Source: Mustelus asterias
Lineage: Eukaryota
Direction of reading: 5' to 3'
NCBI RefSeq assembly: GCF_964213995.1
Contig: NC_135801.1
Coordinates: 11,222,001-11,286,000 of the forward strand
DNA length: 64,000 nt
In this document: in pieces, positions 4,201-63,405 of the stretch
Layout: the number at the start of each line of letters is the position of its first letter
Position numbering within the stretch: the stretch's first letter is position 1
Made by a program: the position numbers and the translations under genes
Notes under the pieces: generated by a model
Databases searched by the model: none
The model's input: only the letters and a program-made list of their open reading frames with translations
What the model was told of the DNA's origin: nothing

Positions 4201-7200
4201 GGAGTCATGTAGCAGGAACTTGCTTCTTCCACTGCATTCCCAACCATGACCACAGGGGGGACTCACAAGTGCATCATGCAAACACTCACAGGCGGCACGG
4301 TAACACAGTGGTTAGCACTGCTGCTTCACAGCTCCAGGGACCTGGGTTCGATTCCCGGCTTGGGTCACTGTCTGTGTGGAGTTTGCACATTCTCCTCGTG
4401 TCTGCGTGGGTTTCCTCTGGGTGCTCAGGTTTCCTCCCACAGTCCAAAGATGTGCGGGTTAGGTTGATTGGCCAGGTTAAAAATTGCCCCTTAGTGTCCT
4501 GAGATGCGTAGGTTAGAGGGATTAATGGGTAAATATGTGGGGGTAGGGCCTGGGTGGGATTGTGTTCGGTGCAGACTCGATGGGCCAAATGGCCTCCTTC
4601 TGCACTGCAGGGTTTCTATGATTTCTATGATTTCCATAATACTTCAAAGAGACTGATCTGGAAAAGATCCGAGGTTGGTGCCTGGATCAGCTGGACAGTC
4701 GAAAGTCCCACTCTGCCGCACTTAAACAGACTATTGTCACTGGAGAGAAGAAGCCTTGGCATGTTTCTCTTGCTATTTGGTTTAGTATCTAACCCATTAA
4801 TCTCCATTATGCTTTATGTTGTATATTAAATAGATGATCAAACGTGCAAACTCCTGATGCTTTGATGAAGGTGTAAGGGGTACATTTTCTCTCTCTGTTC
4901 AACTCTATCCCTGAACTGTCATTGGTTTCCATTAAGCACCTCGGGCTGTTGATCTTAAAAGAGTGATATAAATGCAAATATTGTTCAGAATCACAGAATT
5001 GTTATAGTGCAGAAGGAGGCCATTTGGCCCATCATGTCTGCACCGACTCTCCGAATGAGCAATTCACTTATGGCCATTTTACCACCTTCATCCCCATAAC
5101 TCTGCACCTTTTCTCCTCGTTAAATAAGTCTTATTGCCTTTTTGAATGCCTCGATTGAAGCTGCCTCCACCACACTCTCAGGCAGTGCATTCCAGACCTT
5201 AGCCACGCGCTGTCTGGAAGTTATTCCTCATGTTGCTTTTGCTTCTTTTGCCAATTGCCTTAATTCTGTGCCTTCACATTCTTGACCCATTCACGAATGG
5301 GAACAGTTTCTCCATATTGACTCTGTCTAGACCTCTCATGATTTAGAATGCCTTCATCATCAAATCTCCTCTCAGCCTTTGCTTCCCCAAGGAAAACAGT
5401 CACTTTCTCCAATCTATCTTCCTATTTGAAGTTCCTCATCTCTGGAACCGTTCTCTTGAATGCTTCCTGTCCTCTCTCCAATGCCTTTGCGGGCATCATT
5501 TTCCATTGATCTGAGCAGTGGAAAAGTCCAGTTCCTGGAACAATAGATGTGGGATGCCTTCAAATCCAGTTGCTGTGCTAATAACAGTATGATTTTGTGA
5601 GTGACAGAACATTAAGTCCAGCCCCTGTGAAAGGGGCAGTATCCAAATGTGGAGTGCAACATAACTGTCTGGACCCACACTGCTATGTTTACAGATGCAG
5701 GGCATCTGAATTGAAATGGGGAACGAGGAACTCACATTCTCACGTTTAGAATTAGTGCCTATCATGTCCCAAACTGGGCTGGAAGATGGTGAAGAGAGAT
5801 TCCAGATTTCCTCTACCCTCTGCGTCAAGAAGTGCTTCCTGATTTTAGCCTGGCTCTGATTTTCAATGTGATGTCCCCTTGTTGCAGGACGGAAGAGTTT
5901 TCACGTGCGGAGATGGAAGTGCTGGGCAACTGGGACTGAACACGACAGCCAATGTGAGCACCTTTGAAAGGGTGGAGAAGATTGAGGGCGAAGTTTCACA
6001 GATAGCCTGTGGCAGGTGAGTGACAACAGGAGCTTGGAACACATTCTGTCCTTCTCCTCAAAGCTGGCTTTCGTTTCAGCCTACTCTGATCACATTCAGA
6101 ATACTGTGCAATGCAGTATTTTAAAAATACCCCGTTTTATTTACTATATTTTGCCTCCAGCATTGGGATCTACGTTCAGATGTGAAAGGTGACATTCTCC
6201 TGAATATTCTCCACTATGAGTTAGCATTGGGCAGTTCAGCCCATACTTATGTGCATTAATTACCAAACTTAGGAGGGATTTCTCTGCACAGAGAGTGGTG
6301 AGAATGTGAATACCCATTGTTCATAAGTTCATAAGATACAGGAGCAGAATTAGGCCATTCGGCCCATCGAGTCTGTTCCGCCATTCGATCATGGCTGATA
6401 TGCTCCTCATCCCCATTTTCCTGCCTTCTCCCCATAACCCTTCGTCCCATTACCAATTAAAAATCCATCTAACTCCTCAAATTTTACTCACTGTTCCAGC
6501 ATCCACCGCACTTTGGGGTAGCGAATTCCACAGATTCACAACCCTTTGGGAGAAGTAGTTTCTCCTCAACTCTGTTTTAAATTTGCTATCCCTTATCCTA
6601 AGATTATGACCTCTCATCCTAGAATGCCCTTCCAGCGGAAGCATCCGCTCCACAACTACTTTATCCATACCTTTTATCATCTTGTATACCTCAATTTGAT
6701 CTCCCCTCATTCTTCTAAATTCCAGAGAGTATCGGCCTAAACTGTTCAATCTCTCTTCATACGACAAACCCCTCATGTCTGGAATCAATCTAGTGAACCT
6801 CCTCTGAACTATCTCCAATGCCACTACATCTTTCCTCAAATAAGGGGACCAAAACTGTGCACAATACTCCAGGTGCGGCCTCACCAATGCCTTGTATAGT
6901 TGCAACAATACTTCCTTACCTTTATATTCTATTCCTTTAGCTATAAATGCCAACTTTCCATTTGCTTTCTTTATTATCTGCTGTACCTGCATTCTAGTTT
7001 TCTGTGATTCATGAACGTGGACACCCAGATCCCTCTGCACCAGAGCACCCTGACATGGTGACATGGAGTAGTTGAAGTTAGTAGCATAGGCACTGTTAAA
7101 GGGCGGGTTGGTACCTGCATTTCTATTTTATGGGATATGGCTGTGAATCTGGAGTCTCACAAAGGCCAGACCAATTATGGATGGTAGATTTCCTTCTCTA

Positions 7201-46200: not shown

Positions 46201-46495
46201 GCTTGCTGACATGTCAGAACAGCTGCGTACATAAAATGTCATTGATATGTTTCTTACAGATAGTGCAATGTAAACTCTTTTCTCAGCGTTTCTCACAGGA
46301 ACTGATCGCATTCCGGTGTTCGGGATGGCATGTGTCAAGATAGGTATTGTCCCGAGTCAGCTGACTGAAGACAATTACCCGGAAGCAAACGTATGCTTTA
46401 GTATCCTGAGCCTCCCTGAATACACCAGCACTGAAAACCTCAAAACGAAGCTGGTGACAGCTATTTTCACGGAGAAAAGATTTGACAAATTGTGA
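1176..46495 (+). CDS. HERC6: Gene 1 (5'-partial, spliced, 21 exons): small HERC E3 ligase, HERC5/HERC6-like (RCC1-like domain + HECT)
   Basis: Exons 1176-1249,1338-1559,2977-3068,5888-6015,10998-11104,14193-14257,15812-15939,17940-17999,19757-19862,23735-23924,24553-24737,24854-24967,28379-28492,30302-30472,31477-31620,35726-35892,39196-39253,41014-41084,42762-42945,44225-44327,46287-46495. All GT-AG, phases compatible, 2692 nt, no internal stop. Motifs [42 protein letters not shown] resemble HERC5/6 more than HERC3/4 (from memory). Exact orthology is uncertain. Confidence 0.88.
1338..1559 (+). CDS. Gene 1 exon (RCC1 repeats)
   Basis: 222 nt; [18 protein letters not shown]...[33 protein letters not shown]; cag|...|gtaag. 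Confidence 0.95.
2977..3068 (+). CDS. Gene 1 exon (RCC1 repeat)
   Basis: 92 nt; ...[17 protein letters not shown]|gt. Confidence 0.92.
3222..3640 (-). mobile_element. HE1-type SINE (CR1 tail)
   Basis: Reverse complement of the HE1 pattern. Confidence 0.85.
4291..4632 (+). mobile_element. HE1-type SINE (CR1 tail)
   Basis: Full length, (ttctatga)n tail. Confidence 0.9.
4988..5490 (-). mobile_element. CR1 LINE 3' fragment (degenerate)
   Basis: Similar to the other CR1 3' ends. Confidence 0.7.
5888..6015 (+). CDS. Gene 1 exon (RCC1 repeat)
   Basis: [18 protein letters not shown]...VSQIACG; gcag|...|gtgag. Confidence 0.92.
6320..7050 (-). mobile_element. CR1/HER1-like LINE 3' fragment
   Basis: ORF ...[20 protein letters not shown]...VVNLWNSLP plus microsatellite tail. 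Confidence 0.9.
7912..8258 (-). mobile_element. HE1-type SINE
   Basis: Full length. Confidence 0.88.
8778..9575 (-). mobile_element. CR1/HER1-like LINE 3' fragment
   Basis: 225-aa CR1 ORF2 C-terminus; (taagaaca)n tail. Confidence 0.9.
10607..10890 (+). mobile_element. HE1-type SINE (tail B)
   Basis: Head partly deleted. Confidence 0.85.
10998..11104 (+). CDS. Gene 1 exon (degenerate RCC1 repeat)
   Basis: [36 protein letters not shown]; ttag|...|gtaat. Confidence 0.85.
11243..11555 (+). mobile_element. DeuSINE-like element (tRNA head + Deu core); 3' part resumes at about 12938-13040
   Basis: ggttcgagtc B-box; gtgtcctggctaatatttatccct core. Confidence 0.7.
11768..12761 (-). mobile_element. 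CR1 LINE fragment (RT motifs [15 protein letters not shown]) nested in a + strand CR1 (11560-11767 / 12762-12930)
   Basis: ORFs 11962-12411 and 12428-12955; ACGTTA duplicated at the junctions. Confidence 0.88.
13850..14172 (+). mobile_element. CR1 LINE 3' fragment
   Basis: [13 protein letters not shown]; ctctatgact tail abutting an exon acceptor. Confidence 0.8.
14193..14257 (+). CDS. Gene 1 exon (end of RCC1-like domain)
   Basis: [22 protein letters not shown]; gcag|...|gtaat; phases fit both neighbours. Confidence 0.8.
14470..14770 (+). mobile_element. DeuSINE-like fragment
   Basis: aaaagatcccacggcactattt...ggggagttctcccc core. Confidence 0.7.
14811..15617 (+). mobile_element. Two tandem HE1-type SINEs (14811-15224, 15295-15617)
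   Basis: HE1 pattern match. Confidence 0.85.
15812..15939 (+). CDS. Gene 1 exon (spacer)
   Basis: [28 protein letters not shown]..., HERC-type DFRC..I.T...KW. Confidence 0.85.
16536..17113. mobile_element. HE1 (+, 16650-16938) nested in HE1 (-)
   Basis: Host sequence resumes after the insert. Confidence 0.85.
17563..17841 (+). mobile_element. HE1-type SINE (tail B)
   Basis: HE1 pattern match. Confidence 0.85.
17940..17999 (+). CDS. Gene 1 exon (spacer)
   Basis: 60 nt; [19 protein letters not shown]|gtgagt. Confidence 0.9.
18095..18570 (-). mobile_element. DeuSINE-like element carrying a foreign 85-bp insert
   Basis: Reverse complement of the Deu core on both sides of 18216-18300. Confidence 0.7.
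18216..18304 (+). pseudogene. Captured Ig C1-set (MHC class II beta2-like) coding fragment
   Basis: [29 protein letters not shown] matches the CxVxGFYPxxIxVTW signature. Confidence 0.7.
18775..19610 (-). mobile_element. CR1 LINE fragment interrupted by an HE1 SINE (19047-19352)
   Basis: [12 protein letters not shown] motif. Confidence 0.75.
19757..19862 (+). CDS. Gene 1 exon (spacer)
   Basis: ...[23 protein letters not shown]|gtaac. Confidence 0.88.
20256..20567 (-). mobile_element. HE1-type SINE
   Basis: HE1 pattern match. Confidence 0.85.
21310..21517 (-). mobile_element. Short solo LTR inserted in an L2 element
   Basis: TG...CA termini, 5-bp TSD CTTGC, minus-strand AATAAA at 21342-21347. 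Confidence 0.7.
21877..22160 (-). mobile_element. HE1-type SINE (tail B)
   Basis: HE1 pattern match. Confidence 0.85.
22682..23211 (-). mobile_element. CR1 LINE 3' fragment
   Basis: [11 protein letters not shown]...[15 protein letters not shown]. Confidence 0.85.
23735..23924 (+). CDS. Gene 1 exon (spacer)
   Basis: 190 nt; VASSL...[12 protein letters not shown]...KKTL|gtgag. Confidence 0.9.
24553..24737 (+). CDS. Gene 1 exon (spacer)
   Basis: [24 protein letters not shown]...LELVYN|gtaagt. Confidence 0.85.
24854..24967 (+). CDS. Gene 1 exon (spacer)
   Basis: [19 protein letters not shown]...QQIM|gtgagt. Confidence 0.87.
25120..25220 (+). repeat. G-rich minisatellite, about 16-bp unit (tgaggtggcagtgggc)
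   Basis: Three adjacent units plus degenerate copies. Confidence 0.7.
25405..25666. mobile_element. MITE-like element (similar ones at about 20783-20986, 22496-22635, 26159-26268, 34590-34707)
   Basis: Imperfect terminal inverted repeats gggtgcgatct / gatctcgccc. Confidence 0.45.
26480..26791 (-). mobile_element. HE1-type SINE
   Basis: HE1 pattern match. Confidence 0.85.
27338..27900 (-). mobile_element. Rex1/Babar-like LINE 3' fragment
   Basis: [13 protein letters not shown] motif and (atcaa)n tail; related tails at about 290-480 (+) and 57250-57400 (-). Confidence 0.65.
28379..28492 (+). CDS. Gene 1 exon (spacer)
   Basis: [38 protein letters not shown]|gtaaag. Confidence 0.87.
29741..30052 (-). 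mobile_element. HE1-type SINE
   Basis: HE1 pattern match. Confidence 0.85.
30302..30472 (+). CDS. Gene 1 exon (HECT N-terminal)
   Basis: ...[20 protein letters not shown]...DLKKELT|gtaaac. Confidence 0.9.
30775..31340 (+). mobile_element. LINE 3' fragment (CR1/L2-superfamily, second family)
   Basis: [18 protein letters not shown]-type frame; related copies at 37025-38130 (-) and 50780-51400 (+). Confidence 0.7.
31477..31620 (+). CDS. Gene 1 exon (HECT)
   Basis: [19 protein letters not shown]...IWFPSK|gtgag. Confidence 0.93.
31683..31985 (+). mobile_element. HE1-type SINE (tail B)
   Basis: HE1 pattern match. Confidence 0.85.
32121..32330. mobile_element. Penelope-like element remnant (inverted pseudo-LTR palindrome)
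   Basis: Arms gtaagaagtctc...ttcggagc and gctccgaaagc...gagacttcttac, with a hammerhead core. Confidence 0.65.
32243..32279 (+). ncRNA. Hammerhead ribozyme motif (stem II mismatch)
   Basis: TCAC-CTGATGA-A-AGAGC-AGC-GCTCC-GAAA-GC-TT-GTGA. Confidence 0.55.
33332..33368 (-). ncRNA. Hammerhead ribozyme motif (copy within the inverted duplication)
   Basis: Minus strand reads TCAC-CTGATGA-A-GGAGC-AGC-GCTAC-GAAA-GC-TC-GTGA. Confidence 0.55.
33490..33790 (-). mobile_element. HE1-type SINE (tail B)
   Basis: HE1 pattern match. Confidence 0.85.
34926..35440 (+). mobile_element. CR1 LINE 3' fragment
   Basis: [24 protein letters not shown]. Confidence 0.85.
35726..35892 (+). CDS. Gene 1 exon (HECT)
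   Basis: [14 protein letters not shown]...[25 protein letters not shown]|gtaagt. Confidence 0.93.
36186..36966 (+). mobile_element. Solo LTR (Gypsy-like)
   Basis: TGTGA...TCACA termini, 4-bp TSD CTAC on both sides, AATAAA at 36808. Confidence 0.8.
37025..38130 (-). mobile_element. LINE fragment (same family as 30775)
   Basis: [12 protein letters not shown]...[10 protein letters not shown] remnant. Confidence 0.75.
38165..38420 (+). mobile_element. CR1 LINE fragment
   Basis: [19 protein letters not shown]. Confidence 0.8.
38771..39070 (+). mobile_element. HE1-type SINE
   Basis: HE1 pattern match. Confidence 0.8.
39196..39253 (+). CDS. Gene 1 exon (HECT)
   Basis: [19 protein letters not shown]|gtgagt. 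Confidence 0.88.
41014..41084 (+). CDS. Gene 1 exon (HECT)
   Basis: [23 protein letters not shown]|gtaagt. Confidence 0.9.
41386..42118 (+). mobile_element. Probable solo LTR interrupting a tRNA-derived SINE
   Basis: Ends ...TAACA, imperfect TSD CACAC/CATAC, ATTAAA near 42021; the host SINE resumes afterwards. Confidence 0.45.
42762..42945 (+). CDS. Gene 1 exon (HECT)
   Basis: [12 protein letters not shown]...[10 protein letters not shown]...[23 protein letters not shown]|gt. Confidence 0.94.
43068..43212 (+). repeat. 145-bp direct copy of 44034-44178
   Basis: SINE tail plus unique flank duplicated. Confidence 0.85.
43210..43610 (+). mobile_element. CR1 LINE 3' fragment
   Basis: [22 protein letters not shown]...WNALP. 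Confidence 0.85.
43769..44118 (+). mobile_element. HE1-type SINE
   Basis: HE1 pattern match. Confidence 0.85.
44225..44327 (+). CDS. Gene 1 exon (HECT C-lobe)
   Basis: [34 protein letters not shown]|gtaagt. Confidence 0.93.
45055..45420 (-). mobile_element. tRNA-derived SINE, second family (other copies about 1720-2290, 3660-4020, 58848-59360)
   Basis: tRNA-like head gatggcctagtggt...ggttcgaatccc; tail shared with the 30775 LINE family. Confidence 0.65.
45442..45866. mobile_element. Penelope-like palindromic element with a nested CR1 tail (about 45581-45675)
   Basis: Same family as 32121; both arms carry hammerhead cores. Confidence 0.7.
45521..45557 (-). ncRNA. Minimal type I hammerhead ribozyme motif in a Penelope-like element
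   Basis: Minus strand reads TCAC-CTGATGA-A-GGAG-CAGCA-CTCC-GAAA-GC-TT-GTGA. Confidence 0.7.
46287..46495 (+). CDS. Gene 1 terminal exon (HECT C-lobe, catalytic Cys codon 46394-46396, stop TGA)
   Basis: [13 protein letters not shown]...[39 protein letters not shown]. Confidence 0.94.
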
Positions 46496-47701: not shown

Positions 47702-48241
47702 AGATAATTTAAAATCCTCTGTTCCGTTTCCTTTGTGCCCCAGAGAAGGCATCCAAAGAGCTGTCAAAAGAATATTCATATTCAGTTAACAATCTTTTAC
47801 CAAATCATTTCAGTAATTTCCACCTTTTAACATGCTAATAACCACAGCATTTAAGCAACACATGCACAGAAATCTCATGAGTCTACGTACAACTCACGTT
47901 TTTACTCATGGATTGAAATTTAAGATGTACAGACAGTGCATGTGGCAAATTTGTTAGTCTTCTGGATTGGCAGTGGCAGTGAAGCATTGATAAATTATCC
48001 GACGGGAATTTCCGACACGTGCCTTAAGGGTTTGGAAATATTTCAGCCCTTACTGTTTTTAACATATTGGTTTTTATGCTTGCAGCAAGACATCAATCGA
48101 CATGTGTGTTTCTGTAAGAAAGCTTCTCGCAATACTTTTTCCATTCTCTGATCTCTTCCTATCAAGCACATCTTAGCACCTAGCTCTCTAGTTAGAACTA
48201 TTTTACACAAATCGTATTATCCTAGTAAAATATACATATCT

Positions 48242-50615: not shown

Positions 50616-51934
50616 GATAAAATGGGTATATTAGAATCAAATCAGGGACAGAAAGAGAAATAAAGAGGAAAAGAATGACTGAGATTCCTTCGCAGATATT
50701 AACGATCAGCAGATTGCTGACATGGTATCACACTATCAATTATTAGACTTTATTGTGCAATTAATTTGAAAACCCAGCTGACCTTGGGGGTTACCATTGA
50801 TCAGAAACTAAACTGGACTTGTTTAATGTGGCTACAAGAGCAGGTCTGAGGTTAGGAAGTGGGTAACTTACTTACTGATTCCGCAAGAATAAGTCAGGAG
50901 TGTGATGGAATACTCTTTCCTTACTGGTTGAGTGCATCTCCAACAACACTCAAGAAGCTCGACACCTTCCAGGGCAAAGCAATCCACTCGATTGCTATCA
51001 CTTCCACAAGCATTCACTCCCTCCACCATCGACGAACGGTGGCAGGTGTGTCTACCATCCACAAGATGCACTCCAGGAATTCACCAAGGCTTCTTAGGCA
51101 GCACCTTCCAAACCCACGAGTGCTACCATCTGGGAGAATATGAGCGGCAGATACCTGGGAACACCACCCATCTGAAAGTTCTCCTCCAAGCCGCTCACCA
51201 TCCCAGTCTGGAACTATACCATCATTCCTTCACTGCCACTGGGTCAAAATCCTGGCATTCTCTTCCTAACAGCACCGAGGGTGAACCAAATGCAGCGGTT
51301 CAAGAAGGCAGCTCACCACCACCTTCTCAACAGATACTAGGGATGGGTGATAAATGCTGGTCTCGCCAGCAATGTCCATATCCCATAAATGAATAGAAAA
51401 ATAAAGTTCTTATTAATAACGGGGAGGCTAAGGGAGGATTGATGTTTATGCAAAGCAAATTGGAGCACTATAAATTGTCCAGCGAGTTACGAAGATTTGC
51501 ACTTGCCGCATTTCTCTGGATCACCTTAACTTTTGGGCCGATTTGCACATTAATAACAGCATGCATCATTCACACATGGCTATTTATTCACAAGTTTCAA
51601 CCCATTGCTTAGCAACTCTATCCTAGACTGCTTGCAAAGGTGTTAAAAATACTCCAATAGTTCCTTCTGAACTGTAGGGATTCAATGAATAAAACAGAGG
51701 AGTGACAGGTCTTTGCCTTGGCAATGCCACATGAAGAGGTGGCAAGGGAAATGCGATGGTGCATCTATTTTTGAGGTGCCCTCATAGGGGTGGCAAGGAG
51801 TTGTTTGTTTTTGGCAGTTCCAAGCAGCTCATTGGGAAGCTTTCAGTTAGAGGGCAGTTGAGACACAGCCATGCCCGGCATGAGAACTAGTTGTCCCAAC
51901 AGGCCTCCCTGCCATTTTACTGCCTATGGTATTC

Positions 51935-52092
51935 ATGATGTGGAGATGCCGGCATTGGACTGGGGTGAACACAGTAAGAAGTCTCACAACACCAGGTTAA
52001 AGTCCAACAGGTTTATTGGTATTAATGGTTAATGGTATTTGCTACCAAATAAACCTGTTGGACTTTAACCTGGTGTTGTGAGACTTCTTACT
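51935..52092. mobile_element. Penelope-like palindromic remnant
   Basis: Perfect 45-bp inverted arms at 51973-52017 and 52048-52092. Confidence 0.7.
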
Positions 52093-52364
52093 ATTTGCTG
52101 CCTCCCAGGGGAGGCACAAACCACGACCCAGGGGCTGGTTAAAAAAAAACACTGCCCATTGTTTAGTGCTCACTTTCAAAAGGGCACTGGACAATATTTT
52201 AAAACCAAAAAGTATGCAGGGGTATGGGGAAAGAACAGGGATGTAGCCAACTGGATACCATGATGGGCTGAATGGCCCTTTTCTCTGCTGTATGATATGG
52301 TTTCGAGATCAGAGCACAGGTCAGTTCCTGTAACAAACCAAATCCTGCTTTACAGCATGGCCGT

Positions 52365-52617
52365 TTCCCCGCTTGGGTCACTGTCTGTGCGAAGTCTGCA
52401 CGTTCTCCCCGTGTCTGCGTGGGTTTCCTCCGGGTGCTCTGGTTTCCTCCCACACTCTGAAAGGTGCAGTGGTTAGGGTGCATTGGCCGTGCTAAATTCA
52501 CCCTCAGTGTACCCGAACAGGCGCCGGAGTGTGGCGACGAGGGGATTTTCACAGTAACATCATTGCCGTGTTAATGTAAGCCTACTTGTGACACTAATAA
52601 ATAAACTTTTAACTTTA
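52365..52617 (+). mobile_element. 5'-truncated HE1-type SINE (tail B)
   Basis: HE1 pattern match. Confidence 0.85.
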
Positions 52618-52740
52618 GCTCCAACCGCTCTGTAATAACAGTAGACTGGCTTCCTCCTTGATTCAGTGTTTCTTGTTTATATGTCATCAGCTGTCACCTT
52701 TCAGCAGATTCATTCCACATTCATGATGCGGCTAGCGGTT

Positions 52741-52755
52741 CAGTTTCGGTTTCAG
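52741..52755 (+). promoter_or_regulatory. ISRE (interferon-stimulated response element)
   Basis: CAGTTTCGGTTTCAG matches AGTTTCNNTTTC, about 350 bp upstream of the gene 2 ATG. Confidence 0.8.
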
Positions 52756-52788
52756 TTGCCTTTCATCACTCTGCAACAACAAATGTTG

Positions 52789-52802
52789 GGAAACGGAAAG
52801 TG
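52789..52802 (+). promoter_or_regulatory. IRF-binding element
   Basis: GGAAACGGAAAGTG matches GAAANNGAAA. Confidence 0.7.
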
Positions 52803-52892
52803 ATGGGTGCAGAGGAAAGGGCACTTCCCAAAACAATCCGGGTCTTGTTGCCATTGGCTCGCACCGTTGGTTCAGAGGCGGAGCCAGAGAAA

Positions 52893-52902
52893 GGGAATTC
52901 CC
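52893..52902. promoter_or_regulatory. NF-kB site
   Basis: Palindromic GGGAATTCCC, near a GC-box-like GAGGCGGAGC (52875) and an inverted CCAAT (ATTGG, 52853). Confidence 0.7.
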
Positions 52903-53101
52903 CAAATAAACAAATACATTGTGTGTCAGAGACAGAGAGTGTCAGAGGCAGCCACAGTGAATCTGCAGCTACAGAAAAGGAGCCACTTTATCTGTCTGGC
53001 AGCTAAGTCTCTGCGGTGAATAGAGTTCTCTCTCTCTCTCTGGTTTGAAAGAGGAATAATTTCGAGGAGCTCAGTGCTCAGAGACAGAGACAGAGAGGAA
53101 G

Positions 53102-53282
53102 ATGTTGCATTGGGGGGAGCTGGGCTCAAAGATCCGGCACAAACCCGCCTCACAGACAGTGGATGTTTTCCAAGAGGAGAGAACTCAGCATGTTTGCAGC
53201 CGGGACACAGTCACTGTGTTTGTGTCGGAAAATGGAAAAGTTTACACCAGCGTCCGTGTGCGGAAGAGGAGAACAGAACCTG
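53102..53282 (+). CDS. Gene 2 exon 1 (start codon)
   Basis: aagATG; MLHWGELG...VCSRDTVTVFVSENGKVYT...EP|gtgag. Confidence 0.8.
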
Positions 53283-56200
53283 GTGAGCAAACCCTGTCTG
53301 CAATAGGAAAGAGAATGTTTTAAAATTAAATTATTATTGCTAACATTGACACACATGACAATGTATTAATTTAGACATATTAAAGTGTTCAGAGTTTGGA
53401 ACAAACTCTATATTTGATAGAGATCCTGTATTATCTATATAAGTTTCTTGTGTGACTCTTGTTAAAGTCTGGTATTTCTTCCAAACAGATTGGCATCAGG
53501 AATTGTATTTAATGTTTAATTTAATGTTTCTGCGTTTCCCCCGCATTGCATTCATCTTCAATGTGGTTGTGGTTTGGGTTAGAATCTGGGTGATGATTCT
53601 AATGTGTGAGTACAGTGTCTGGGGGTGAAATGCTGGATTTATCCAGAGCGGTGCAGTTTCGTTTCCCTTCATTCTCTCCTCCCCTTCCCCACCCCAAACA
53701 ACTCTGTCCGTTTGATTTTGCTCACTTTCAGTTTCATTTCTCTCAGTCACAGTGAGAGCAGCAGCAACACTGAGCCTGGCTCGGAATAGAAACCTTAAAC
53801 CCATTAACCCAATACTTGTAAAACCAACACACACCATTGGCAGGAAAAGCTTGGTTAACTGAGTGGATCTTGCTGCGAGTTTCATTAAGGAGCATTGTAT
53901 TATTATTGGAGGAGACAAGTTGACCAGGAGAGAGAATATTTTAATACCGACCTCATTTTTTATCTGAATTGTTTTAATGTAAATTTTACATGATTTAAAA
54001 TTGCCCCCTTTTAAAAAATGTTGCTTTCTCGCTCACTTAACTTCCTGCAGCCAATTGCTATTCAATCAAAAGTGAATTGACTGTAGTGCATAACAGGGTG
54101 GCATGGTGGCATAGTGGTTAGCACTGCTGCCTCACAGCTCCAGGGAATCGGGGTTCGATTCCCGGCTTGGGTCACTGTCTGTGTGGAGTCTGCACGTTCT
54201 CTTTGTGTTTGCGTGGGTTTCCTCCGGGTGCTCCGGTTTCCTCCCACGATCCAAAGATGTGCTAGTTAGTTGCATTGGCCATGCTAAATTCTCCCTCAGT
54301 GTACCCGAACAGGTGGCGACGAGAGGATTTTCAGAGTAACTTCATTGCAGTGTTAATGTAAGCCACTTGTGGCTAATAAATAAACTTTACTTTTTATTTC
54401 TTGCTGTCAACTATTACTCCCATTGTCAGAGAAGCTGTAAAGTGACAGTTACATTTTGGCACAAGCAGCAGATTGAGTTAAAGTTTATTTATTAGTCACA
54501 AGTAAGGCTTACATTAACACTGCAATGAAGTTACTGTGAAATTCCCCTAGTCGCCACATTCCGGCACCTGTTCAGGTCAATGCACCTAACCAGCGCGTCT
54601 TCCAGAATGTGGAGGAAACCGGAGGAAACTCACACAGACACACACAGGGAGGACGTGCAGACTCCGCACAGACAGTGACCCAAGCCGGGAATCGAACCCA
54701 GGTCCCTGGCGCTGTGAGGCAGCAGTGCTAACCACTGTGCCACCGTGCTGCAGAAGCAGCTGGTAACTTTCAAGCTTTAGGTATAGAGAGCCTCATGTAA
54801 CTGGGACATTCTGAGGAACAGGTTTGATTACTGAGCAAAAGAGGAGGAGGAGATGAATTCCAAATGGGAAATGTTTCTTTTATGAATATCCTTACCTCGA
54901 TGAACGCAAAGTCAGCAACTGGATAGTCAGAAGCTTTTCCCTAGGGTGGAAGAGTCAATTACTAGGCGGCATTGGTTTAAGGCCTGAGGGGCAAGGTTTA
55001 AAGGAGATGTAAGAGGCAAGTTTTTTTACAAAGAGGGTGGTGGGTGCCTGGAACTCGCTGCCGGGGGAGGTAGTGGAAGCAGATACGATAGTAACCTTTA
55101 AGGGACGTCTTGACAAATACATGAATAGGATGGGAATAGAAGGATATGGTCCCCGGAAGGTTGGGGGGGTTTTGGTTCAGACGGACAGCATGGTCGGTGC
55201 AGGCTTGGAGGGCCGAAGGGCCTGTTCCTGTGCTGTAATTTTCTTTGTTCTATTATTTTGGTGAGAGGTGGGAGTTGAAAAGTTCACACTAGGGTTTACA
55301 AGTGTGTAAACTGCTGTTAGTGGCTAACAGCTTTTTCATGTGGTTTCGCTGCATGAATTGATAGGGACAGGGTTAGACTGACCAGCCCCTGAAATGTGTT
55401 CCACCATTCAGTTAGATGACCGCTGATCTGTACCTCAATTATATTTACTCAACTATTCCACAATACCCTTACCTACTAAAATTCATCAATCTCTGTCTTG
55501 GAAATTTTAATTGACTTAACAACCACAACCTATTGGGAGTAGAGTTCCAAATCTCTACTACTCATTGTTTAAGAAGTGCTTCCTCATTTCACACATAAAT
55601 GGCCTGAATCTGTTCATGACCCGTACTCAACTGAATCTTTTAAACTTTGGCATATTTCCAATGAAGTGATCACTGTTGCGACAGCTCCATTTGCAAGTAA
55701 ATCAACAGCAGCAAGACACAACTTCTCCTTTGAATTAGTTGGTATATTCTTTGCATAGATTTTTTTTACATTCGCTGCTGGAATCCAGGTGTCACTGAGG
55801 AAGGCTGACAATCATGGTACATTGTTGTCCTGCGAATGCGCCGCTGAGTCATGTTTTGACATGACTGTGTAGTAGCTCTCTGGGCTATTTCAGTGTCAAC
55901 CACATTGGTGTGGGACTGGAGTCACTTATATAAATTGCCTCTTAGTGTCCAGGGATGTGTGGGCCAGATGGATTAGCCATGGGAAACGTGTGGGGTTGCG
56001 AGGATGAGGGCTTGGATAAGATACTCAGTCAGAGAGTCAGTGCAGACTTGTTGGGCAGAATGGCCTCTTCTGCACTGTAGGGATTCTATGATATAGACAA
56101 GCTATGGACAGCAGGTCTCCTTCCCTAAACTACTTTAGAGAATCAGATGGGTTTTGACAATCAAACAGCGTCATGGTAACCAATTTTTAAAACTGAATTC

Positions 56201-59200
56201 AAATTCTCAAGCGCTAATGGTGGGATTTCAATTCTCATTCTCTGGATTATTAATCTAGTCACATAACCGTTGTACCACCAAATCCTTAAATATTAACACT
56301 GTGTTTACATTCTTTTCCTGCAGGACAATTTATTCACTTCAAGAAACAAAAGATCTACTTTGCGGACAGCGGAATGTCCCACATCCTGTTTCTCTCTACA
56401 ACAGGAAGTCTTTTTTGTAGTAAAATTAAATCAAAGGAAACTGTAGCTAAAACAAAAGAATTTCCCATAATGGAACCACAGTAAGTTAAATAAATCAATT
56501 AAAATAATAAACCACACTTTATGCACTTTACAGCAGGCATTACATTAGTCTGGCGGTTTTTAAGGATTAAAAAAATGATGCTTTTGTTTGATTCTGCGCA
56601 ATGGTAATTAAATTGAGTTGTTGACTAAATAGATGTCAGAAGTAATGATAGAATTTCGCCCTTCGATCCCAACAGGTGCAAGGATATTATTGTCAAAATT
56701 GTAATAAAAACAGAAAATGCTGGAAAGTCTCAGCAGGTCTGGCAACACCCGTGGAGAGAGAACAGCACTAACGTTTCTGGTTGCCACATTACAGGAAGGA
56801 TGTGGAGGTTTGGAGAGGGTGCCGAAAAGGTTTACCAGGTTGTTGCCTGGATTAGAGGGTCCGAGCTATAAGAAGAGGCTGGAGAAATGAGAGTTGCGTT
56901 CTATGGAGCGGCGGGGGCCGAGGGGAGACCTGATAGAAGTCTATAAAATTATGAGAGGCATAGATGGGGTTGACAGTTGGTATCTTTTTTCCAGAGTTGA
57001 AATACCTAATACTAAGGGGCATACACTTAAGGTGAGAGGGGAAAATTCAAAGGAGATGTGAAGGGCAAGTTTTTTACACAGAGAGTGGTAGGAGTCTTGA
57101 ATGTGCTGCCAGGGGTGGTGGTGGAGGCAGATACGATAGGGGCGTTTAAGGGGCTTTTAGATAAGCACATGAATATGCAAGGAATGGAGAGATATGGACC
57201 AAGGGCAGGCAGAAGAGATTAGTTTAATTTCAAGCCTGGATGACTCAGTTTTTGATTTGATTTGATTTATTATTGTCACATGTATTAGTATACAGTGAAA
57301 AGTATTATTTCTTGCGCGCTATACAAACAAAGCATACCATTCATAGAGAAGGAAATGAGAGAGCGCAGAATGTGGTGTTATAGCTAGGGTGTAGAGAGCA
57401 TTGTTAGAGAGTTTAAAAGAGTTAGACTTAATTTTAGAAGCATAGAACGAGAGTAAAAGATAGAATTAGAAGGTATGCTGGGCACAGCTTGCGACAAGCC
57501 GCCTCACTCCGGCGCCATCTTGAAAAAGAAATTCTATTCTCTCTCCACAGATTCTGTCAGACCTGCTGAAACTTTCCAACATTTTCAGTTTTTGTTTCAG
57601 ATTCAAGCATCTGTAGTAATTTGCTTTTGTCAAAATTGTAATGTCTCACTTGAAAGACAGTGCTGCACTCCACTGAAGGGTCAGGTTTGATTACGTGCTG
57701 AAGTCTCCAGGGTGGGACTTGAACCATAAACCTCAAAATCAGGAGGCAAGAATGCTACCAGCTGAACCAAGACTGACTTGCTAGGGCGGATTTGGCTATT
57801 GATTACCCAGTGGCCTATCTCTGATAAACTATAATATCCCGTAGGTTCTGTAGTTGTTCAGATTGTTAATGTAGAGATACAAAGACAAGAGCCTATAGTT
57901 GCATCCTGAAGTCCAATGTTAACAAGAACAAAGAACAGTACAGCACAGGAACAGGCCCTTCGGCCCTCCAAGCCTGCGCTCATCACGTTTACCTATCTAA
58001 ATCAACCGCTTATATCCCTCTATTCTCCGTTTGTTCATATGCCTGTTCATATAACATGCTATAACTTCCATTAAAACATTACAAAATAGCCTCTTATAAA
58101 ATGAATTAGATGTATTTAGGAGAGATTTATGTATGATGTGTCATTATGTTTATGCTTTGTTTATGTTTAGGTTACTTAAGGGTTTGAGTACCAGAAATAT
58201 AATTCAAGTGGCTTGTGGAAACAATCACTCACTGGCACTGTCGAAAGGTATGAGTTAAGCTAAAATATATTTGTTGTAACTTAATCACAAATAGATTAAA
58301 ATTAAGAAGCTGTGGACCTAGCCGTGTTGTACCAGGCCTGAGTTTAGCATGATATGTAACATGATTGTCATATCCATGGTTAATATTGGGATGTTTGCAT
58401 TTCGTCAAATACCGAATTGGCAACAAAAGCCAAGCCATTAAGTAAATCAAACTTGAAAAAAACATCCTTCTGTTTAATATTTTCCTAATTTACCTCAGTG
58501 AGAAACTGAGAAGGAATCGGAACGTATTGTCAGTTTTTTGTAACGCCATCTACTTGGTCATACTTATCACTGAACAAATGTGTCAGGAACACACTTTTGC
58601 TTCTGGCTCAGAAGATTGTGGCTTCAAATCCCACCTCAGGACTTATGCACAGAAGAATCAAGGCTGTCACTCCAGTACAGTACTGAAGGAATATCCAAGT
58701 TGCCTTTGGCCTTCAACATGAGAAGGATCAGCTCAGTATATTTCTATCCCTGGGATATGGGCATTGCTGGCACATCTCATCTTTACTTGCCCTGATGTAA
58801 TGATTTGGCACAGTTGAGTGGGTTCCAACGCCACTTCAGAGAGCAATGGGGGGGCGATGGCCTAGTGGTATTATCGCTAGACTATTAATCCAGAAACTCA
58901 GCTAATGTTCTGGGGACCCGGGTTCCCGTTTGGGGGGAATGGGAGCAAAGATTATGGGGCGAAAGCAGGATTAGGCTATTGAGTTGGACAATCAGCCATG
59001 ATCGTGATGTTTAGCAGAGCAGGCTCGAAGGGCCAAATGGCCTCCTCTTGCTCCTATCATCTATGTTTCTATGTTTCAAATCCTGCCACAGCAGATGGGG
59101 AATTTGAATTCAGTAAAAAATATCTGGAATTAAGAATCTACTGATGACCATGAAACCATTGTCGATTTTCAGAAAAACTCATCCGGTTCACTAATGTCCT

Positions 59201-62200
59201 TCAGAGAAGGAAATCTGTTGTCCTTACCTGGTCTGACCTACATGGGACTCCAAAGCCACAGCAATGTGGTTGACTCTCAATTGTTCTCGGGCAACTAGGA
59301 ATGGGCAATGAATGCTGACCAGCCAGTGACACCCATGTCCCACGAATGAATTTAAAAAAATCAACAGATCTACATATTTGTTTAAAATGGATTCAAATTT
59401 TCAAATTGCCCTGTTGGGATTTGAACTCACAGTTGGAAAAGGAGCTTGATATTACTCGGCTGTCAGAAAGAGATAATCAAGAACAATGTCCATCCATCAA
59501 TCTCTTCTGTTCTGCCCGAGGGCAGGTGTTAACTCAAGCCCTGCACACATGACTTTTGAGCCATCTACGCAGGAGTTTACCATCCTGAGGCCCAAAGAAC
59601 GTACCTGTTCCTGGAATCCAGGGTGTTCAGCGCTGGGGACTGATTGCAGTTCCACTCCTGTCCAGTAACGTTTCTGGTGATGCAGAGACTAGAGAGCTGT
59701 CACCCAAGCAGATTGGCTGGGAGCTCGCTTCTGGTGGGACTTCCTCCTGAGCGAGTGGTGGAAATTCCACTTGAAGCCAGTTAAGGCTTGTTGGAGCGTG
59801 AAATCGCTGCGGGACAAACACTGTTGTCGGGGAACTGGATGCGGGAAGGGAAAGCCCACCAAACTAAAAATCCTGACCCACATACTAGTCTCTACTTAGC
59901 GGGGCTGTCCAGAGTGGTACACACACACTTCACCTTCTGATTCAAAGCTGTGTGTATCACTGAGCGGAATAGTGTATATTGAAGTATATGTACTGCAAGA
60001 GAAATGGTTTGTTGGCCATTTATGACTTAATATTTAATACCCTGAACATTATCCATATCCAATACAGTATAGACATTGACCTAAAGTCGAAACCAGTTTT
60101 TGTATTTCTCAGTCTCATTGTAAGAGTTAAACATAATCATTTCAAACCTGAAGTAATTTTTTTCTCAAATGTCTTTTGCTGAAAGATGGTGAAATCTTTG
60201 CCTGGGGACAGAACACTTACGGCCAGCTCGGTCTTGGTACACAGGAAGCCTCCCAGAGCGTCCCTCAGAGTGTGATATCTCTCACTGGGATGCCAGTGGC
60301 TCAGATCACTGCAGGAGGGGAACACAGCTTCGCCCTGTCTCTCTCAGGTGCCGTCTTCGGTTGGGGAAGGAACAATCACGGGCAGCTGGGGCTTAAGGAC
60401 ACAGAAGGTAAGAAAGTTTCCAAGAACTATTGCCCTTCCTTACCCTTTATGCTGCTTCCATTAACAAAGCCTGGCATCCTGTCCAAAAGGAGAGAATAAT
60501 TTAACGATCGGATTTGCAGTCAGTGGCATTATATCTGAAATAGCCAGGTGGTGAAGGATAGCACCAGAGTCAAATCATTACACTCATCGTAGCTTTTATT
60601 TACAGAGATACATTTTAAAAATGTGCACTTCCAAACACAAGCAGCACAGTGGCACAGTGGTTAGCACTTCTGCTTCAAAGTGCCAGAGGCTGGGGTTCGA
60701 TTCACAGCTTGGGTCACCGCCTGTGCGGTGTCTGCATGTTCTCCCCGTCTCTGCGTGGGTTTCCTCCGGGTGCTCCAGATTCCACCCACAGTCCAAAAGA
60801 CGTGCTGGTTAGGCACATTGGCTGTGCTACATTCTCCCTCAGTGTACCCGAACAGGCGCCGGAGTGTGGCGACTGGGGGATTTTCACAGTAACTTCATTG
60901 CAGTGTTAATATAAGTCTACTTGTGACACTAATACTTAAACACACAGTTCCAGTCCGTTCGTATATGTAGGGTCTATCAGCATCTATAGAGAGAGAAACT
61001 GAGTTAACGTTTCGAGTCCAATATAACTCCTCTTCAGGACATTTCAGACCACTCCGATGTGACAGCTGTGAGATTCAATGTGTTGAGATATCACTCCTCA
61101 ATACTGTGTACCATTGAGGTTCAAGGTTACATACTGGGTAAATAATGTGGTGCCCATCAATACATGCAGTTGGATCAAATGTGTAATCGTCACCCGATAC
61201 AGTGTGACCGGGTTTCACTCCTCAGGCTGCAGTTATCTGTACAAGCGTTTTTTCTGGGTTCAGCAGCTGGCCAAAAGATTGGGACAGAAAATCCTCAATC
61301 TTGCTCACTGTTCTGTATTGAGAAAGCCAGATGTGGACCAGTTGAATGTTTTGTTTTAACATTTACATAACACCGATATGTCTGATTCTGAACTCTCAAT
61401 GGTTTGTCAGTTTAATTTCTGTGGTCTTTCTCAATCTGGGTGCTCATTGTTAGACTTCCTACATTTCTTCAACCAAGCCCACACAAACTGCAGAAAATAT
61501 TGCATCTTCTTGCTCTTCTGAGTCTTTGCTTTGAACTTTTCCTTCAGAATAATTGGATTTCATTTGTCCTCGACTCACATGTTTATATTCAGTTTTAAAG
61601 TCCCGTGCGCACCAGACATTCATCGTCACAGCGCTTTTTTACTCAACCCATTCCGAAATAGACTCATAACACAGAATGGTTTACAATAGAATAAATATTA
61701 TCCCCTCACATCACACCCAGGCTGAATGAGTGTTTCTAACACTCCCTGGACTGACGTTTACAACAATATCAAGTGCAATAAAGTCAGAATCATTATACCC
61801 TTAACTCAGTTAATAACGTTTACATGCAATCTTCATGATTAAAAATCTTCTTGTTCTGCACCATACTTTGGAAAAGGGGGAGGAATGTGAGTTGATTTCT
61901 CTTTCCATCCTTCTTACAGATAGATATGAACCCAACCACGTGAAGCTGTTGGAGTGTAAGAAGACCATCCATATCTCTTGTGGGGAAGAGCACACTGCTG
62001 TCCTGACAAAGGTTTGTTCAGGAAGAATTTGTCATTAGAATCTCAATCATTCCTTATTGGGATGGGAGATAGCCGCCATTGTAATTACAACCACTGCTTT
62101 TTACCCTTGGTGCAGCCCACCTAGGGCATAGCCTGATTAAAAACTGTGAGGTAAGTGGCAAGGTGGCACAGTGGTTAGCACTGCTGCCTCACAGCGCCAG

Positions 62201-63405
62201 GGACCCAGGTTCAATCCTGGCCTTGGTGACTGTGTGGGTTTGCACGTTCTCCCCGTGTCTGCGTGGGTTTCCTCCGGATGCTCTGGTTTCCTCCCACACT
62301 CCAAAGATGTGCAGGTTAGGTGAATTGGCCATGCTAAATTGGCCCTTAGTGTTCCAAGATGTATTGGTTAGATTTTTATTAGTGTCACAAGTAAGCTTAC
62401 ATTCATAGTGAAATGAAGTTACTGCGAAAATCCCCCGGTCGCCACAATCCAGTGCCTGTTCAGGTACACTGAGGGAGAATTTAGCATGGCCAGTGCACCT
62501 AACCAGCACGTCTTTCGGACTGTGGGAGGAAACCAGAGCACCCAGAGGAAACCCATGCAGACACAGGGAGAATGTGCAGACTCTACACAGACAGTGACCC
62601 AAGCCAGGAATCGAACCCGGTTCTCTGGCACTGTGAGGCAGCAATGTTAACCACTGTGCTACCATACCGCCCAAGCCATGGGAAATGTGTGGGGTTATGG
62701 GGATAGGGCAGGAGAGAGAGCCTGGGTAAGATATTCTGTGAGAGAGTGGATGCAGGCTCAATGGGCCGAATGGCCTCTTATTGATTCTATGATTCCAAGC
62801 AATGGAGTACCACCTTCCTCAGTAAGTAACTTAAGAATCTCATGTGTGAGGTTTGAGTTCCATCCAGCCCTGGAGAAAAACACAATGGATGGACTAACCT
62901 TTAGTTACCGCTCGCGGATTAGAAAAAAGTTAGATCTTCAATCTGCTGCCTTGGGACAAATAGATAACTAATGTTTGAGCAATGTTTACAGCCAATGGGC
63001 TATATTTTCTGACTGCACTGCTTCCCGTACAATATTTGACATTCTCATTCTGGATATCTCTGAGAATCGAGAATAAATTAGAATATAGAAAATGGCAGCT
63101 GAGAAAAGATAGAATCAGTTAAAGTGACAAAGGTCCATCACTAGATTCTGACAATGTTATACCATGTGCTAATTAGCAATAATAAAACGATCCTAGACCG
63201 CTGACACTTCAGTACCAAAGGCTTTCCTTGTGATCCAATGTAACATGTCCTTAAGATATTGTCTTCTCCTCCAGGATGGGTTTGTTTACACCTTTGGAGC
63301 TGGGAGTTACGGGCAACTTGGACACAACTCCACAATGGATGAGATCAAGCCTCATCTGGTCGGCTACCTGTTTGGAAATAAAGTTTCTCAGATAGCGTGT
63401 GGGAG
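53102..63405 (+). CDS. Gene 2 (3'-partial, spliced, 6 exons visible): small HERC paralogue, HERC7- or HERC5-like, RCC1-like domain
   Basis: Exons 53102-53282,56324-56480,58171-58247,60186-60407,61920-62011,63275-63405 join in frame. MLHWG start resembles the HERC MLCWG start. Exon sizes 77/222/92/131 parallel gene 1 (74/222/92/128). Confidence 0.87.
53655..53740 (+). promoter_or_regulatory. Intron-1 ISRE/IRF cluster
   Basis: AGTTTCGTTTCC (53655) and ACTTTCAGTTTCATTTC (53724). Confidence 0.6.
54096..54750. mobile_element. Tail-to-tail inverted HE1 pair (54096-54393 +, 54477-54750 -)
   Basis: HE1 pattern matches. Confidence 0.85.
54921..55255 (+). mobile_element. CR1 LINE 3' fragment
   Basis: VVGAWNSLPGEVVEA. 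Confidence 0.8.
56324..56480 (+). CDS. Gene 2 exon 2 (degenerate RCC1 blade)
   Basis: ttttcctgcag|GQFIHFKKQKIYFADSGMSHILFLSTTGSLF...EP|gtaagt; phases 1 and 2 fit neighbours. Confidence 0.8.
56778..57227 (+). mobile_element. CR1 LINE fragment nested in a Penelope-like remnant (about 56705-57630)
   Basis: Closely similar to the 34926 copy; host arms cagaaaatgctggaaa and its inverse near 57560-57600. Confidence 0.75.
58171..58247 (+). CDS. Gene 2 exon 3
   Basis: LLKGLSTRNIIQVACGNNHSLALSK|gtatg. Confidence 0.92.
60186..60407 (+). CDS. Gene 2 exon 4
   Basis: DGEIFAWGQNTYGQLGLG...[31 protein letters not shown]|gtaag. Confidence 0.95.
60643..60940 (+). mobile_element. HE1-type SINE (tail B)
   Basis: HE1 pattern match. 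Confidence 0.85.
61003..61040 (-). ncRNA. Hammerhead ribozyme motif, second Penelope-like family
   Basis: Minus strand reads GTC-CTGAAGA-G-GAGTT-ATATTG-GACTC-GAAA-CG-TT-AA. Confidence 0.5.
61920..62011 (+). CDS. Gene 2 exon 5
   Basis: DRYEPNHVKLLECKKTIHISCGEEHTAVLTK|gt. Confidence 0.93.
62155..62795. mobile_element. HE1 (-, 62372-62672) nested in HE1 (+)
   Basis: Host tail resumes at about 62678. Confidence 0.85.
63275..63405 (+). CDS. Gene 2 exon 6
   Basis: DGFVYTFGAGSYGQLGHNSTMDEIKP...KVSQIACG|gtgag. Confidence 0.94.

Follow-up and report, generated by a model that had tools for sequence, protein, structure and literature searches.

A Probable Interferon-Stimulated Promoter Upstream of a HERC7-Family Gene in the Shark Mustelus asterias

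Introduction

Positions 52735-52910 of a 64,000-nucleotide stretch of the Mustelus asterias genome (the window) probably serve as proximal promoter to a shark gene of the HERC7 E3 ligase family, here called gene 2, and, judging from the sequence, this promoter would work as a standard interferon-stimulated-gene (ISG) promoter. A first-pass annotation had placed seven motifs in this region, at 52741, 52789, 52819, 52853, 52875, 52893, and 52904, and all seven are found there. Their weight as regulatory evidence is discussed below, together with that of a second cluster located in the first intron. The architecture is a textbook one and will be unsurprising to specialists, the HERC7 family being already known as an ISG family in teleosts.

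Identity of Gene 2

Gene 2 is read on the plus strand and has six coding exons in the window. They lie at 53102-53282 (with the ATG at 53102), 56324-56480, 58171-58247, 60186-60407 (which carries RCC1 repeats and follows an AAG acceptor), 61920-62011, and 63275-63405, and the gene extends past the window end. With GT-AG borders, the six exons give an open frame of 286 residues, all of which (286/286) are identical to residues 1-286 of P0123, a Mustelus asterias protein of 1021 amino acids named “putative HERC3.” According to Pfam, P0123 is composed of a WD40_RLD domain (4-331) and a HECT domain (728-1019), which is the architecture of a small HERC. A cysteine of the HECT domain occupies what we take to be the catalytic place. 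Two further Mustelus asterias proteins, P0124 and P0128, are paralogues of P0123.

In a protein search made with exon 4, HERC3 and long RCC1 proteins took up much of the list, and a search of representative proteins returned mostly long RCC1-repeat proteins. Trees were built with FastTree from 59 rows and with IQ-TREE (LG+G4) from a subset of 29 rows, the other 30 being dropped. The groups obtained are HERC4, HERC3, a group in which gene 1 joins coelacanth, gar, and tortoise proteins labeled “HERC6” (100/100), and the gene 2 clade (100/100). This last clade contains 16 rows, with C. milii XP_007900727.1, carp, striped catfish, salmonids, gar herc56.4, paddlefish, lungfish, tortoise, and goose. 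Grouping the six chondrichthyan and the four HERC3 rows as one clade is rejected by the AU test (p=1.3e-33), the tested group having been named after the tree was seen; on the same test, we discard the database label “HERC3” for the gene 2 protein.

The HERC7 family was reportedly defined in a J Immunol paper of 2022. It is described as a non-mammalian clade apart from HERC3, HERC4, and HERC5/6, having elephant shark, teleost, and bird members (PMC10003058), and the taxon make-up of the gene 2 clade agrees with the HERC7 of that description. The coelacanth provides an anchor: XP_014354293.1 falls in the other, HERC6-labeled clade, and XP_014354291.1 would be the HERC7 protein of PMC10003058, given our mapping of XM to XP accessions. 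By taxon composition and this anchor, gene 2 is a predicted member of the HERC7 family, the trees being built without mammalian HERC5/6 and without accession-published HERC7 sequences, none of which was met among the 30 proteins looked up.

The gene 2 product has the same RCC1 plus HECT architecture as mammalian HERC5 and HERC6, which are interferon-induced ISG15 ligases and belong to the sister clade. In the present trees, made without the mammalian proteins, gene 2 nevertheless lies outside the HERC5/6-like clade and gene 1 inside it. Gene 1 (1174-46495), which the trees place as HERC5/6-like, is likewise a small HERC and adjoins gene 2 upstream in the same orientation; its stop is near 46495 and its promoter is outside the window. 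The position described for HERC7 is next to HERC3, between FAM13A and PPM1K; in the window, gene 1 is the sole neighboring gene to be seen.

Two ISRE-Type Sites Upstream of the First Coding Exon

The first site, ISRE1 (52738-52765, minus strand), is made up of IRF half-sites repeated with a 6-bp period around the core AGTTTCGGTTTC at 52742-52753, and its extent exceeds that of the site first annotated. It is a tripartite GAAA array with one mismatch. Such arrays (3 of 23 matches) are found at two places in the window only, ISRE1 and 57583, the latter inside a repeat. ISRE1 scores 14/16 on the ISGF3 consensus WBVGGAAANNGAAACT and does not satisfy the strict RGTTTCNNTTTCY consensus. The first-pass reading was of an ISG15-type ISRE core at 52741. 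ISRE1 and the human ISG15 EMSA probe, as given in PMC7405385, have 14 consecutive identical bases, TCAGTTTCGGTTTC. However, the human probe ends with CCC, which is absent from the shark site; ISRE1 reads AG there and adds further IRF half-sites. The 5′ GG that the complete ISGF3 consensus requires is therefore missing from it.

The second site, ISRE2 (52786-52802, plus strand), reads GGAAANNGAAA and is of the EIRE type. Over 52786-52801 it is the only one-mismatch match to the ISGF3 consensus in the window, among 20 sites with two mismatches at most. No perfect match to WBVGGAAANNGAAACT occurs in the window, ISRE2 being the best with 15/16. The full consensus is apparently not required, since it is reported in less than 1% of IRF9-dominant regions (PMC6954429). 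In the same study, EIRE, tripartite ISREs, and NF-kB motifs are enriched at IRF3-dominant and not at IRF9-dominant sites, and a variant, GAAANNGAAACT, is enriched at IRF9-dominant sites (PMC6954429). ISRE1 includes this variant.

The ISRE consensus AGTTTCNNTTTC has a single copy in the 64 kb, at 52742 (expected, 0.23-0.32 per window), 360 bp 5′ of the gene 2 ATG. The pattern GAAANNGAAASY has three copies in the window, at 52742, 52790, and 53724 (expected, 0.9-1.0), all of them in a 1-kb interval (52742-53735) surrounding coding exon 1 of gene 2. In simulated Markov windows, two GAAANNGAAA together with a kB consensus within 176 bp were found in 0/150 cases at order 1 and in 0/150 at order 3. 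Without the kB consensus, two GAAANNGAAA within 176 bp were found in 7/150 and 5/150 cases, respectively. A trio of GAAANNGAAASY sites inside 1100 bp was seen in 0/300. These figures flatter the cluster, because the patterns were chosen post hoc and the site was already known. GAS sites (TTCNNNGAA) are absent from 51690-59199. Elsewhere in the window, TTCCNGGAA sites occur at 5532 and 59608.

kB, ETS-Like, CCAAT, and GC-Box Sites

The kB site GGGAATTCCC (52893-52902) is a perfect palindrome and the sole exact copy in the window. It satisfies the consensus GGGRNWYYCC, whose frequency is at chance level (8 starts in the window for 9-10 expected). A lone match at 48004, 3′ of gene 1, falls within this chance expectation. 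The kB-like site initially proposed at 52819-52829 on the minus strand, GGGCACTTCCC, fails GGGRNWYYCC and is no longer considered a kB site. Its minus-strand GGAAGTG at 52822-52828 is presumably an ETS-type core, and the site would more likely be used by ETS factors. The NF-kB case of this promoter would rest on one perfect site, at 52893, of a consensus class at chance frequency, and it is weaker than the IRF part. NF-kB bound there would probably provide synergy or a basal/inflammatory input, in a secondary role. The earlier proposal that gene 2 is an ISG under ISGF3/IRF and NF-kB control has two unequal halves: the former is indirectly supported by the animal being a shark (from the 286/286 identity) and by membership of the HERC7 clade, in which teleost herc7 genes are interferon/virus-induced, whereas the latter is reduced to this one site.

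The other elements carry less information. The inverted CCAAT (ATTGG; 52853-52857, minus strand) belongs to a motif class at chance level, with 195 occurrences in the window for 176-202 expected. This is also the case for AAATAAA, with 47 copies, and for the GC-like pattern, with 2. With such counts, and since both are altered in a related sequence (run X16, see below), CCAAT and AAATAAA were not retained as promoter evidence and are probably incidental. The GC-box-like site GAGGCGGAG (52875-52883, plus strand) is a plausible candidate. CpG o/e amounts to 0.69 for 52720-52920 vs. 0.38 for the whole window at 48% GC, the promoter stretch being too short for this value to weigh.

Interferon Control in HERC7 Relatives

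Teleost herc7 genes are described as induced by interferon or virus (PMC10003058, PMC11277259, PMC12234341). In zebrafish, a 248-bp herc7c promoter containing two ISREs is reported to be sufficient, the proximal ISRE being needed, and dominant-negative STAT1 and IRF9 reduced herc7c activation (PMC10003058). ISG status of gene 2 is to be expected, since the proximal ISRE drives zebrafish herc7c. By our tree, herc7c belongs to the same clade as shark gene 2, and both have two ISRE/IRF-E sites near the 5′ end and a family that grew through lineage-specific tandem duplication. There are also differences: herc7c was studied with reporters and mutations whereas the shark promoter is known from sequence, and the available text on herc7c mentions neither a kB site nor an intronic ISRE cluster (PMC10003058). 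The herc7 promoter of the European sea bass likewise has two ISREs (AGTTTCN2TTTCN) predicted close to the start of the gene, at -52 and -152. Their spacing is 100 bp, vs. 48 bp and an opposite orientation in the shark (PMC11277259). In salmon, HERC7/9 are said to be strongly induced and HERC3/4 not (PMC12234341). As for the signaling side, the presence in sharks of all three interferon types (PMC6640115) and of IRF9 (PMC10107944) has been described.

One may ask whether the same sites could serve another program, namely, an IRF1/IRF8/ETS and NF-kB promoter through which leukocytes would express the gene constitutively or upon inflammation, ISGF3 playing little part or p50 dimers acting as a restraint. 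We hold this to be quite unlikely. The EIRE-type sequence of ISRE2, GGAAANNGAAA, and the enrichment of EIRE, tripartite, and NF-kB motifs at IRF3-dominant sites are in its favor, as are the ETS-like core at 52822-52828 and the constitutive and wide expression reported for sea bass herc7 (PMC11277259). However, ISRE1 holds the IRF9-dominant variant GAAANNGAAACT, ISRE2 retains 15 of the 16 ISGF3 bases, and zebrafish herc7c activation was lowered by dominant-negative STAT1 and IRF9. For the interferon-driven promoter that we prefer, ISGF3 (STAT1/STAT2/IRF9) would bind ISRE2 and ISRE1 after interferon. Upon sensing of viral RNA, IRF3/7 or IRF1 could bind the same half-site arrays directly.

Repeat Setting and Start-Site Zone

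The upstream boundary of the promoter is a SINE-like repeat (52362-52618, plus strand) with up to 31 self-matches in the window, and this 31-copy repeat ends about 120 bp 5′ of the motif cluster. The cluster had been presented as free of transposable elements over 175 bp. This is true, but it is weak evidence and was not retained as such: 41% of the 176-bp windows are free of self-repeats, repeat-free stretches so short being common. Taken as a whole, the repeat-free island (52619-54088; 1470 bp) ranks third in length among those of the window, and the intron-1 cluster described below also lies within it. About 40% of the window is self-repeated. From the list of open reading frames, the repeats are presumably SINE-like copies for the most part, with LINE-like reverse-transcriptase fragments.

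The AT-rich stretch 52904-52945 (plus strand), with AAATAAA at 52904, is the likely start-site zone, and transcription would start near 52925-52945. The motif cluster ends 200 bp 5′ of the gene 2 ATG. There is no ATG between 52803 and 53102 (296 bases), and 9 of the 1161 ATG gaps in the window are as long; an ATG-free stretch is as expected of a promoter followed by a 5′-UTR. A possible 5′-UTR intron of 95 nt (52957-53051) has a weak donor at 52957 and an AAG acceptor candidate at 53052, where 17 of 20 positions are pyrimidines (true acceptors score 14-19).

The Intron-1 Cluster

A second ISRE/IRF cluster, which the first-pass annotation does not contain, lies on the minus strand in intron 1 of gene 2 (53655-53741). 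At 53655 it has AGTTTCGTTTC, and a tandem site occupies 53724-53741. Two of the three window copies of AGTTTCNTTTC are located in this cluster. This cluster may act as a nearby enhancer. An additional pair of IRF-like half-sites is observed at 53783-53793.

Related Sequences in Other Sequencing Runs

Four of the 21 listed runs (X3, X5, X16, and X18) were aligned to 52620-53850 at 80% likeness, no RNA run being among those listed. The whole promoter is present and colinear in X16, which is from another organism, and in X18, with about 92% identity. In X16 it is covered by one contig (52623-53072; 37 differences and 45 gap letters), as it is in X18 (52623-53208; 46 differences and 46 gap letters). 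Both contigs run upstream into the same repeat tail, which indicates orthology. Run X3, labeled with the organism of the best-matching runs, covers 52720-52963 with one difference and no gap; it comes from the same study as those runs and is perhaps not independent. X3 covers the intron and shows library-adapter ends; it is DNA and gives no start-site information.

Among the X16 and X18 differences listed (26 of the 37 for X16, and a minority of those specific to X18), none changes the ISRE cores 52742-52753 and 52790-52799. For X16, 18 substitutions are listed over 206 bases and the two cores, 22 bases in all, contain none of them, which is not significant (P=0.12). The X16 changes among those listed include 52855, which breaks CCAAT, 52906, within AAATAAA, and 52829, which makes the kB-like site worse and the ETS site better. 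The flanks of ISRE2 are changed at 52800 in both runs and at 52789 in X16. Depth bins show, in X16 and X18 alike, three bases missing in 52704-52745 and three in 52746-52787. This fits equally a single gap of 6 bp (52743-52748) that would take one unit out of ISRE1 and two separate gaps, for one of which a CAA repeat near 52775 offers a natural position. Since another contig overlaps 52866-52902, any X16 and X18 differences within the GC-box and kB elements may be masked. In X5, X16, and X18, a different locus matches just this GC-box plus kB segment, 52866-52902, with similar unrelated flanks in all three. This locus may represent a diverged paralogue promoter, or else match by chance.

The intron-1 cluster is found in X3, X5, and X18. 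Among the changes listed, one at 53665 (one contig each in X5 and X18) creates a perfect AGTTTCNNTTTCC. Another, at 53736 (one contig in X3, four in X5, and two in X18), leaves the tandem site intact. Several of these contigs probably correspond to paralogues. The exon 1/intron 1 junction (53170-53380) has at least three distinct contigs in X5, X16, and X18, whereas X16 and X18 have a single contig over the promoter. This is a hint that paralogues may resemble one another more in exon 1 and intron 1 than in the promoter. No contig covers most of the promoter in X5 or 53670-53850 in X16, such holes being uninformative.

The retention of the intron-1 sites in several X5 and X18 contigs, with one listed change leading to a perfect AGTTTCNNTTTCC, bears on the possibility that gene 2 is interferon-responsive while 52735-52910 is an enhancer, or part of a split control region, the true first exon being elsewhere or the intron-1 cluster being dominant. 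ISRE1 may moreover be shorter in relatives, and the pyrimidine-rich AAG acceptor candidate at 53052 could accept an upstream exon. This arrangement nevertheless seems unlikely to us. The weak donor at 52957 gives only a 95-nt UTR intron, which leaves the start in the zone proposed above, and the sequence further upstream consists of repeats and the gene 1 stop near 46495. In addition, the spacing to the predicted start would fit the usual position of ISREs, within 200 bp of the start, as described in an IFIT promoter survey whose figure legend includes no shark (PMC3688568).

The same comparisons are relevant to a second doubt, that the motifs are due to chance or have decayed beside a non-induced gene, for example a paralogue that lost its regulation after tandem duplication. 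The patterns were defined post hoc, core conservation is not significant, and CCAAT and AAATAAA are altered in X16. Against this, the simulations gave 0/300, and exon 1 lies between two separate ISRE clusters. The teleost family is ISRE-driven, the six exons preserve an uninterrupted reading frame, and the complete protein model retains its HECT domain. We regard this explanation as very improbable, and a proximal ISG promoter as by far the better account of 52735-52910.

A more tentative idea, possible but on the doubtful side, is that shark HERC7 genes have a two-part interferon switch. A promoter turning over between paralogues and species, in which ISRE1 gains or loses a 6-bp half-site unit, would be combined with an ISRE module in intron 1 that is more constant and travels with every tandem duplicate. 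If this were true, ISRE control of HERC7 would predate the split between sharks and bony fish, and the locus would constitute a natural reporter for ISGF3 signaling in cartilaginous fish.

Significance

In the titles and abstract openings searched, subscription journals being mostly outside, no tested ISG promoter from a cartilaginous fish was found. A 480-bp fragment would make a cheap reporter with which to ask whether the ISRE code goes back as far as the jawed vertebrates themselves. If fish HERC7 is a guide, gene 2 may encode a ubiquitin/ISG15 ligase that is induced and either restricts viruses or dampens the interferon response. Zebrafish and carp HERC7 are reported to damp interferon signaling, and the coelacanth protein to restrict SIV (PMC6002735, PMC10003058).

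Finally, sharks and rays possess an expanded set of HERC7-like genes, with three in Mustelus asterias and several each in Scyliorhinus, Cetorhinus, and Rhincodon. The corresponding proteins (P0123-P0157) carry HERC3 or HERC4 labels in the databases; this expanded shark family would be HERC7-like and probably antiviral.
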